A program made the position numbers and the translations under genes. Positions 5,544-6,341 of a stretch of DNA of 64,000 bases are shown one piece after another (within the stretch, counting starts at the first letter, position 1; every line of letters begins with the position of its first letter). Below the pieces are notes generated by a model. That model was not told the DNA's origin, did not search any database, and was given only the letters and a program-made list of their open reading frames with translations. Source of the stretch: Escherichia coli (GTDB taxonomy: Bacteria; Pseudomonadota; Gammaproteobacteria; Enterobacterales; Enterobacteriaceae); NCBI RefSeq assembly GCF_016026235.1, contig NZ_CP065613.1, one strand, 5' to 3'.

Positions 5544-6341
5544 TTACCCCGGTTGTCACCCGGATCATAGTCACTTGATGTGACTATGATCCGATTAATA
5601 CTCTCTCCGCTACGCAGTGTTGTAGATCAATTGCGCACTATCATTGAAATAATTACCTGCTAGTGATTATTTCAACCTACTGAATTTCATCTAATTTTTT
5701 TCACTCCATGGCAAATTAGCCATTTCAAACATTATCATGGCTGATATTTTCCGTAGTCAGGTTTAATGTTTTAAAAGTGCTGTGGGAAAGTGAACAAAGA
5801 GTTCCGTAAGCGTTGATGCTATGGGCGGTTAAATAAGTAATCCGGGTTCATTTTTTTGCAACTGGCGTTGATTACATTGCATAAATATCCGTGTCTCCAG
5901 ACGCTATATAAAAACCTGAAGACATGAATGCGTTATTTACTCAGGTAATTTCAATGCGTTAAAAGAAAGCTGGCAATCCAATTGCCAGCTTAAGTCGAAA
6001 CAAGGAGACTCGATATTTAAATCGGATTACATTTTAACTTTAGTAATATTCTTCAGAGATCACAAACTGGTTATTGATAACTTATTCTTGGGCAGTAATC
6101 CGCAAACGTTAACTTTTTGTTTACTATTTACAAGCTGATAACAACCAGGAATCTTACTTAGGATCAATATATGGAGTGCGTGATGGATAAATCTGAAGTA
6201 TTGATTAGTGTTAATAGACGTATTAGTTCACGAAGGGTAAAGTTCTTATAGGCGTTTACTATATTGAACAACGATTCGGACAAGGATGTAAATAATGAAA
6301 AGGATGACATGTTCGAAACGATAACGGCTAAGGAGCAAGTT
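5544..6341 (+). promoter_or_regulatory. large AT-rich gadE upstream control region (multiple gadE promoters; expected site of the ArrS antisense RNA)
   Basis: 798-bp ORF-free AT-rich spacer upstream of gadE seen in sequence; regulatory content is from established knowledge of the gadE locus, individual sites not mapped here. Confidence 0.55.

Follow-up and report, generated by a model that had tools for sequence, protein, structure and literature searches.

The 64-kb stretch of Escherichia coli DNA analysed here (the window) starts inside the acid fitness island, and the features considered at the locus are collected in Table 1. The hdeD and gadE genes are arranged in tandem and are separated by a 798-bp intergenic region, which the literature regards as a single long gadE promoter whose transcription starts are at -21, -124, -324/-317 and -566. 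A palindrome occupies the far edge of this spacer, 781 to 749 nt before the gadE ATG, in agreement with an earlier sequence-only reading of the window that had placed it at the distal edge of the gadE control region. The nearest gadE start, T3 (promoter P3, at approximately 5776), is 183-215 nt further downstream. The same reading had the palindrome starting 19 nt after the hdeD stop, at 5562, and the limits of the hdeD ORF do put it there.

Table 1. Features of the hdeB-mdtE region in window coordinates.
Feature	Position	Strand	Basis
hdeB	3942-4280	minus	ORF list/annotation
hdeA	4384-4716	minus	ORF list/annotation
hdeD CDS, 190 aa, TAA stop 5541-5543	4971-5543	+	ORF list; RefSeq annotation of identical or near-identical E. 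coli loci
17-nt spacer, hdeD stop to stem	5544-5560	+	Alignments
Hairpin 5' arm, CGGATCATAGTCAC	5561-5574	+	Inverted-repeat search, RNA folding, pair counts
Hairpin loop, TTGAT	5575-5579	+	Alignments
Hairpin 3' arm, GTGACTATGATCCG	5580-5593	+	Inverted-repeat search, RNA folding, pair counts
C-rich, G-poor, AT-rich untranslated stretch; candidate Rho loading/termination zone	5594-5760	+	GC skew, Rho call at 5709
Mapped steady-state RNA 3' end, A5597	5597	+	Adams et al, 2021 (PMC7815308)
gadE	6342-6869	+	ORF list/annotation
mdtE	from 7208		ORF list/annotation

The palindrome is an inverted repeat whose 14-bp arms are 100% complementary across a 5-nt loop, with six G-C pairs among the 14 of the stem. 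The sequence-only reading had given it perfect 13-bp arms (5562-5592); the sequence is as quoted there and the arms are indeed perfect, but they are one pair longer. By an analytic estimate 0.0014 perfect hairpins with arms of at least 14 bp and loops of 3-8 nt would be expected by chance in 64 kb, and in first-order Markov resamples of the window no 13-bp arms were found (0 of 30), the longest being 12 bp. Among the perfect hairpins of the window it ranks second in length. The predicted RNA hairpin has a folding energy of -25 kcal/mol on either strand (-24.6 kcal/mol for the minus strand) and dominates the local predicted fold. No T-run follows the stem on either strand, the tail directly 3' of it, ATTAATACTCTCTCC, is without a U-rich tract, and a terminator scan raised no flag for it, all of which bears out the earlier statements that there is no T-run and that this is not a simple terminator.

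With a 43-nt query, 5412 of 5426 complete E. coli genomes each gave a single locus, which in every case was on the chromosome and followed hdeD; the two 'places' reported per genome are the two strands of one palindrome. Within the window no other copies beyond chance expectation were seen at up to two mismatches, and neither a second copy nor a family of half-sites was found in the window or in the E. coli genomes. The phages and viral contigs searched gave no match, nor did true plasmids, the sole 'plasmid' matches being to 4.8-4.9-Mb records that are mislabelled chromosomes. An Rfam covariance-model scan of positions 3000-9000 at E <= 1 likewise gave no match at the palindrome. With one locus per genome and none on mobile DNA, the palindrome is neither a member of a repeat family nor the end of a mobile element nor an operator motif that recurs, and REP/BIME, MITE and IS ends are ruled out; the further copies that the sequence-only reading had suggested looking for are not there.

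Two unusual contexts were also noted. In E. coli Z1324SEC0014, a swine isolate, an IS903B element (locus L006, 500-1423) interrupts hdeD near its 3' end, some 40 nt short of the usual stop, and separates hdeD from the hairpin. An 8.6-kb contig labelled Flavobacterium paronense CECT 8460 (L012) carries a K-12-type hdeD region, with 98% protein identity and an identical hairpin, and almost certainly reflects contamination of that assembly with E. coli DNA.

The palindrome is real, non-random and conserved. Within E. coli the main divergence is between K-12-type and B2-type alleles, the latter (e.g. NU14, ATCC 25922) being found in about 1300 of the 5412 genomes and approximately 89% identical over 281 bp. 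Comparison of the K-12-type sequence with that of NU14 reveals a sharp substitution hot spot, with 27 differences in the 200 nt of 5540-5739, the rest of the hdeB-gadE region having mostly 0-4 differences per 100 nt and one bin at 7. Inside this hot spot none of the 26 core stem bases (the 13-bp arms) is changed (hypergeometric P = 0.0016). The loop of the B2-type differs at three of its five positions, the 14th pair is T-A in place of C-G and a 15th pair is gained; other sampled variants have the loop TTTAT, an altered 14th or 15th pair, or a G-U wobble (strain E7-1N7). Between lineages the loop varies freely (ATTAA, TTAAT, TTTAT, TCATA, TTGTG, GCACA). The hot spot overlies the hdeD 3' UTR and presumed Rho zone, and may stem from relaxed constraint, from an allele imported long ago or from mutation associated with transcription. 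The 17-nt spacer between the hdeD stop and the stem is not conserved, being heavily substituted in B2 strains. A small hairpin, CCGG-N7-CCGG (5550-5564), and a minus-strand terminator-like match were rejected as candidate elements, as they are not conserved in B2 strains.

When species-representative genomes were scanned with protein guidance, hdeD was located in Kluyvera and in seven lineages of Escherichia. E. albertii, E. whittamii, Escherichia sp. E1V33 and strain E69 have an insertion of 16-17 nt in the spacer between stop and stem, and their flanks are barely alignable; the hairpin is nonetheless in register, with two pairs switched, one from G-C to C-G and the other from A-U to C-G. Across 15 pairs and 12 distinct sequences, 91.7% of the cells are paired compared with 22-44% in slid controls. 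Double changes occur at four pairs, and the covariation score was reached by 0 of 500 shuffles, the compensatory changes representing a small number of independent events. In the 160-176-nt hdeD 3' region RNAalifold gave no consensus structure other than this hairpin. The inner 10 bp of each arm are nearly invariant across the genus. Template-switch mutation in DNA palindromes can mimic compensatory change in the absence of selection. On the alignments the palindrome is conserved as a structure, and the compensatory switches in the outer arms between species are a better fit to structural constraint than to sequence recognition. Assignment of the functional strand from G-U wobbles was tried and abandoned, as the variants favour both strands about equally: those of E69 and E7-1N7 pair only in plus-strand RNA, while the A-C mismatch of the albertii clade becomes a G-U pair in minus-strand RNA, the only strand in which this variant pairs fully.

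The hdeD homologue of Kluyvera cryocrescens (57% identity) is followed, about 15 nt past its stop, by an unrelated perfect 11-bp hairpin, also without a U-run. In strain NBRC 102467 this hairpin (locus L014, 3082-3107) is situated in a 56-nt gap between hdeD and a gadE-like gene that is convergent with it, whereas in Escherichia hdeD and gadE are in tandem. A hairpin after hdeD therefore recurs in a setting where no upstream gadE element is possible.

Published Term-seq data show a plus-strand RNA 3' end at the base of the stem. Adams et al (2021; eLife, PMC7815308) list an end at MG1655 3657621 (Supplementary file 1, M63 0.4), with an average read count of 1149.98 and a 50+1+10-nt context of CCCCGGTTGTCACCCGGATCATAGTCACTTGATGTGACTATGATCCGATTA followed by ATACTCTCTC; this corresponds to window 5597, 4 nt past the last base of the stem. 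They classed it as 'orphan', a label that follows from its distance of 54 nt from the hdeD stop, outside the 50-nt rule for a 'primary' end. The end was called with modest reads in one of three growth conditions, M63 glucose, with no call in LB at OD 2.0. No minus-strand end at the palindrome is listed in the three conditions (PMC7815308). The mapping of the hdeD 3' end that had been proposed from the sequence is thus available, and it gives a plus-strand end just after the stem. The same dataset has an ORF-internal end at window 5102 (MG1655 3657126, plus strand, M63 0.4), 131 nt into hdeD, with a read count of 1502, above that of the end at the hairpin foot; this could be a site of premature termination or of processing.

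Downstream of the stem the sequence has the composition expected of a candidate Rho zone. The GC skew stays below zero between roughly 5480 and 5760, is lowest (-0.42) at 5660-5739 and flips near the gadE T3 start at 5776. In all eight Escherichia loci checked C exceeds G at 40-120 nt past the stem, as it likewise does at the rut sites just after protective stem-loops (Dar & Sorek, 2018; PMC6061677). Adams et al (PMC7815308) call a region of Rho termination at 3657733 on the plus strand (Supplementary file 2; Rho score 6.83, p = 2e-20), equivalent to window 5709 and 112 nt downstream of the mapped end. The score is confounded by an excess of downstream reads: upstream and downstream counts were 101 and 28 without bicyclomycin and 251 and 475 with it. 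As downstream reads exceed upstream reads after treatment, read-through alone is insufficient to account for them and part must come from new initiation, probably from derepressed gadE promoters. A literature search found no report linking hdeD with bicyclomycin and none of the hdeD 3' UTR in RIL-seq, and the matches in the ProQ literature concern only the hdeD 5' UTR.

Dar and Sorek (2018; PMC6061677) described a class of Rho-dependent transcripts with steady-state ends directly after stable stem-loops that lack a U-tract, where rut-like sequence is present just downstream and the ends are made by PNPase or RNase II trimming. The hdeD stem-loop is similarly stable, with the steady-state 3' end immediately after it, no U-rich tract, more C than G just past the stem and a putatively bicyclomycin-sensitive region about 100 nt further on, and it is on this match that we read it as a protective 3' stem-loop. 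In contrast to the usual members of the class, the hdeD stem is longer and more perfect (14-15 bp, -25 kcal/mol), and Rho action and trimming are here steps that we infer. REP and BIME elements are comparable in that the hdeD hairpin, too, is an extragenic palindrome at the 3' end of a gene, able to block 3' exonucleases; it differs from them in being single-copy and in having no similarity to the REP consensus, a true REP element being present at ~24140-24175.

It would seem probable, therefore, that the palindrome forms a stem-loop at the 3' end of the hdeD mRNA that resists exonucleases, and that Rho terminates transcription further downstream. RNA polymerase would pass the hdeD stop and the hairpin into the untranslated C-rich, G-poor stretch. 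Rho, for which the supporting bicyclomycin data are confounded, would load downstream of the hairpin and give diffuse termination some 100-200 nt on, before gadE P3 (start ~5776). The 3'-to-5' exonucleases PNPase and RNase II would then trim the tail until blocked by the hairpin, leaving the end 4 nt past the stem. In this way the hairpin would shield the hdeD mRNA against decay from its 3' end, and it would set the hdeD unit off from the gadE control region. Several points count against a protective stem-loop: the 3' end was called with modest reads in one condition of three, the Rho score is confounded, the G-U variants do not single out a strand, compensatory changes in a palindrome can also arise by template switching, and the near-invariance of the inner 10 bp of each arm could equally be explained by a sequence-specific binder. 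Most likely the hdeD hairpin is an ordinary RNA hairpin of a known class and involves no new mechanism. The sequence-only reading had proposed either a dimeric protein-binding site or an RNA processing hairpin. The Term-seq end at the foot of the stem favours a hairpin tied to 3'-end formation and the binding site finds no support. With the 3' end at the hairpin, no other copies and no evidence of binding in the GadE, GadW, GadX and FNR data, the idea of a special protein-binding site is essentially refuted.

The window's longest perfect palindrome, at 24210-24240, has 15-bp arms, TAATTGCCGGATGTC-A-GACATCCGGCAATTA, and no T-run. It lies between convergent ORFs, 3 nt past the 3' end (stop 24244) of the one on the minus strand (24244-26319) and roughly 35 nt away from the REP element mentioned above, and is probably a 3' hairpin of the same class.

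Release of the polymerase at the hairpin itself, without Rho, is a real but less likely alternative, and several observations are consistent with it. The hairpin would in this case act as a weak, non-canonical intrinsic terminator, its stable stem and partly U tail, AUUAAUACU, causing release, and the end would afterwards be nibbled to +4. The stem is very strong at -25 kcal/mol, the RNA 3' end is at its foot and four of the first nine tail bases are U. As in a canonical terminator, a stable hairpin stands soon after the stop; the differences are the lack of the defining 7-8-nt U-tract, the modest G-C content of the stem (6/14) and the 3' end at +4, whereas intrinsic terminators typically release the RNA 7-9 nt past the stem. 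The consensus terminator scan did not flag the site, C exceeds G downstream and the Rho region is called 112 nt further on. The bicyclomycin evidence for Rho at hdeD is, however, confounded, and Dar and Sorek (PMC6061677) report mixed cases, with Rho acting as a backup where intrinsic termination is inefficient. The sole difference between a weak intrinsic terminator and the protective stem-loop that we favour is the point at which the polymerase is released.

The minus-strand fold could in principle serve as the other face of a bidirectional RNA barrier, stopping or stabilising antisense RNA from the arrS/gadE side before it reaches hdeD. Its stability (-24.6 kcal/mol) equals that of the plus-strand fold, full pairing of the albertii-clade variant is confined to minus-strand RNA and the nearby ArrS terminator hairpin has 3' ends on both strands. 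This role is nevertheless improbable, as no minus-strand 3' end is seen near the palindrome in the three Term-seq conditions and on that strand the palindrome is preceded by the strong ArrS terminator. The ArrS terminator, 370 nt downstream of the hdeD hairpin, resembles it as a perfect hairpin in the hdeD-gadE spacer with mapped 3' ends, but it is a classical terminator with a minus-strand T-run and a read count about 850 times higher. Its hairpin (5967-5991) is perfect over 11 bp, and the Term-seq end is at 3657985 with a read count of about 983,000. A plus-strand 3' end is also listed just past it, at 3658019 within the gadE T3 leader, and the ArrS hairpin may be active on both strands.

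There is a slimmer chance that the hairpin and the downstream Rho zone form a regulated gate, or that the dyad doubles as a DNA site for a further regulator. Under some conditions an RNA-binding protein with a preference for structured 3' ends (e.g. ProQ), or anti-termination, would then allow GadE-activated hdeD transcripts to read through into the gadE leader. Expression of hdeD and gadE in single cells is reported to be correlated and heterogeneous; if such a gate exists, it would add a positive-feedback arm that contributes to this behaviour.

That the palindrome is primarily a DNA operator, with a dimeric protein binding the dyad TCATAGTCAC-N5-GTGACTATGA and acting on gadE P3 or on hdeD, is less probable again. 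An operator would explain the perfect dyad symmetry, the near-invariance across the genus of the inner 10 bp in both arms and the position inside the 798-bp region treated as the gadE promoter. No second copy or related site exists in the window or in the E. coli genomes, and there is thus no regulon-like motif family. The GadE, GadW and GadX ChIP-exo sites do not overlap the palindrome, the nearest (v2 3655735-3655770, window 5688-5723, centred 70.5 nt upstream of T3) lying about 95 nt downstream of it. FNR peaks are found elsewhere, at the hdeA/hdeD promoter and closer to gadE. In the ArcA EMSA the probes were the entire P3 and P1 fragments, which give no resolution at the palindrome, and no mention of a palindrome or hairpin was found in the literature on the hdeD-gadE spacer. 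The distance of 183-215 nt from gadE T3 also argues against an operator. Arms of 13-15 bp that are paired to their very ends, with compensatory changes in the outer pairs and a freely varying loop, are what is predicted of an RNA stem, and in Kluyvera a non-homologous hairpin occupies the same place although the gadE-like gene is convergent. A role for Dam or SeqA was considered, there being a GATC in both E. coli arms, and rejected as a conserved feature, the GATC being lost in the albertii clade (GGATC to GCCTC).

Quasi-palindrome template switching is known in E. coli and a single event can produce apparently compensatory double changes, so that a functionless palindrome might be kept perfect by intra-strand switching between its arms rather than by selection, and its flanks are a substitution hot spot; this is the least probable of the readings, given that an RNA 3' end maps precisely to the stem foot, that the hairpin is kept in at least seven Escherichia species while its flanks became unalignable, and that an analogous hairpin is found in Kluyvera.

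Other elements of the region were also noted. An imperfect 13-bp palindrome at 5644-5675 (TTGAAATAATTAC / GTGATTATTTCAA) was discounted, RNAalifold giving no conserved structure. The block ATCATTGAAATAAT (~5632-5655), within the region of this imperfect palindrome, is kept across Escherichia species amid divergent sequence and may, on its conservation, belong to the distal gadE control region as a DNA element. In the gadE-mdtE spacer there is a match to the Rfam ES205 sRNA (6987-7058, plus strand) of 105 bits against a gathering score of 86, presumably representing the gadE 3'-UTR sRNA region, termed GadF in recent papers.

The main value of these results lies in annotation, in that an 'orphan' Term-seq 3' end can be assigned to hdeD. 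The hdeD 3' UTR is thereby defined as approximately 54 nt, ending in a conserved hairpin, and the first 50 bp or so of the '798-bp gadE promoter' are functionally those of hdeD. Retention or removal of the hairpin should consequently be a deliberate choice in the design of hdeD or gadE reporter fusions and of deletions in the spacer. The locus also provides a clean, small case of structural conservation, with compensatory changes, within a local substitution hot spot.
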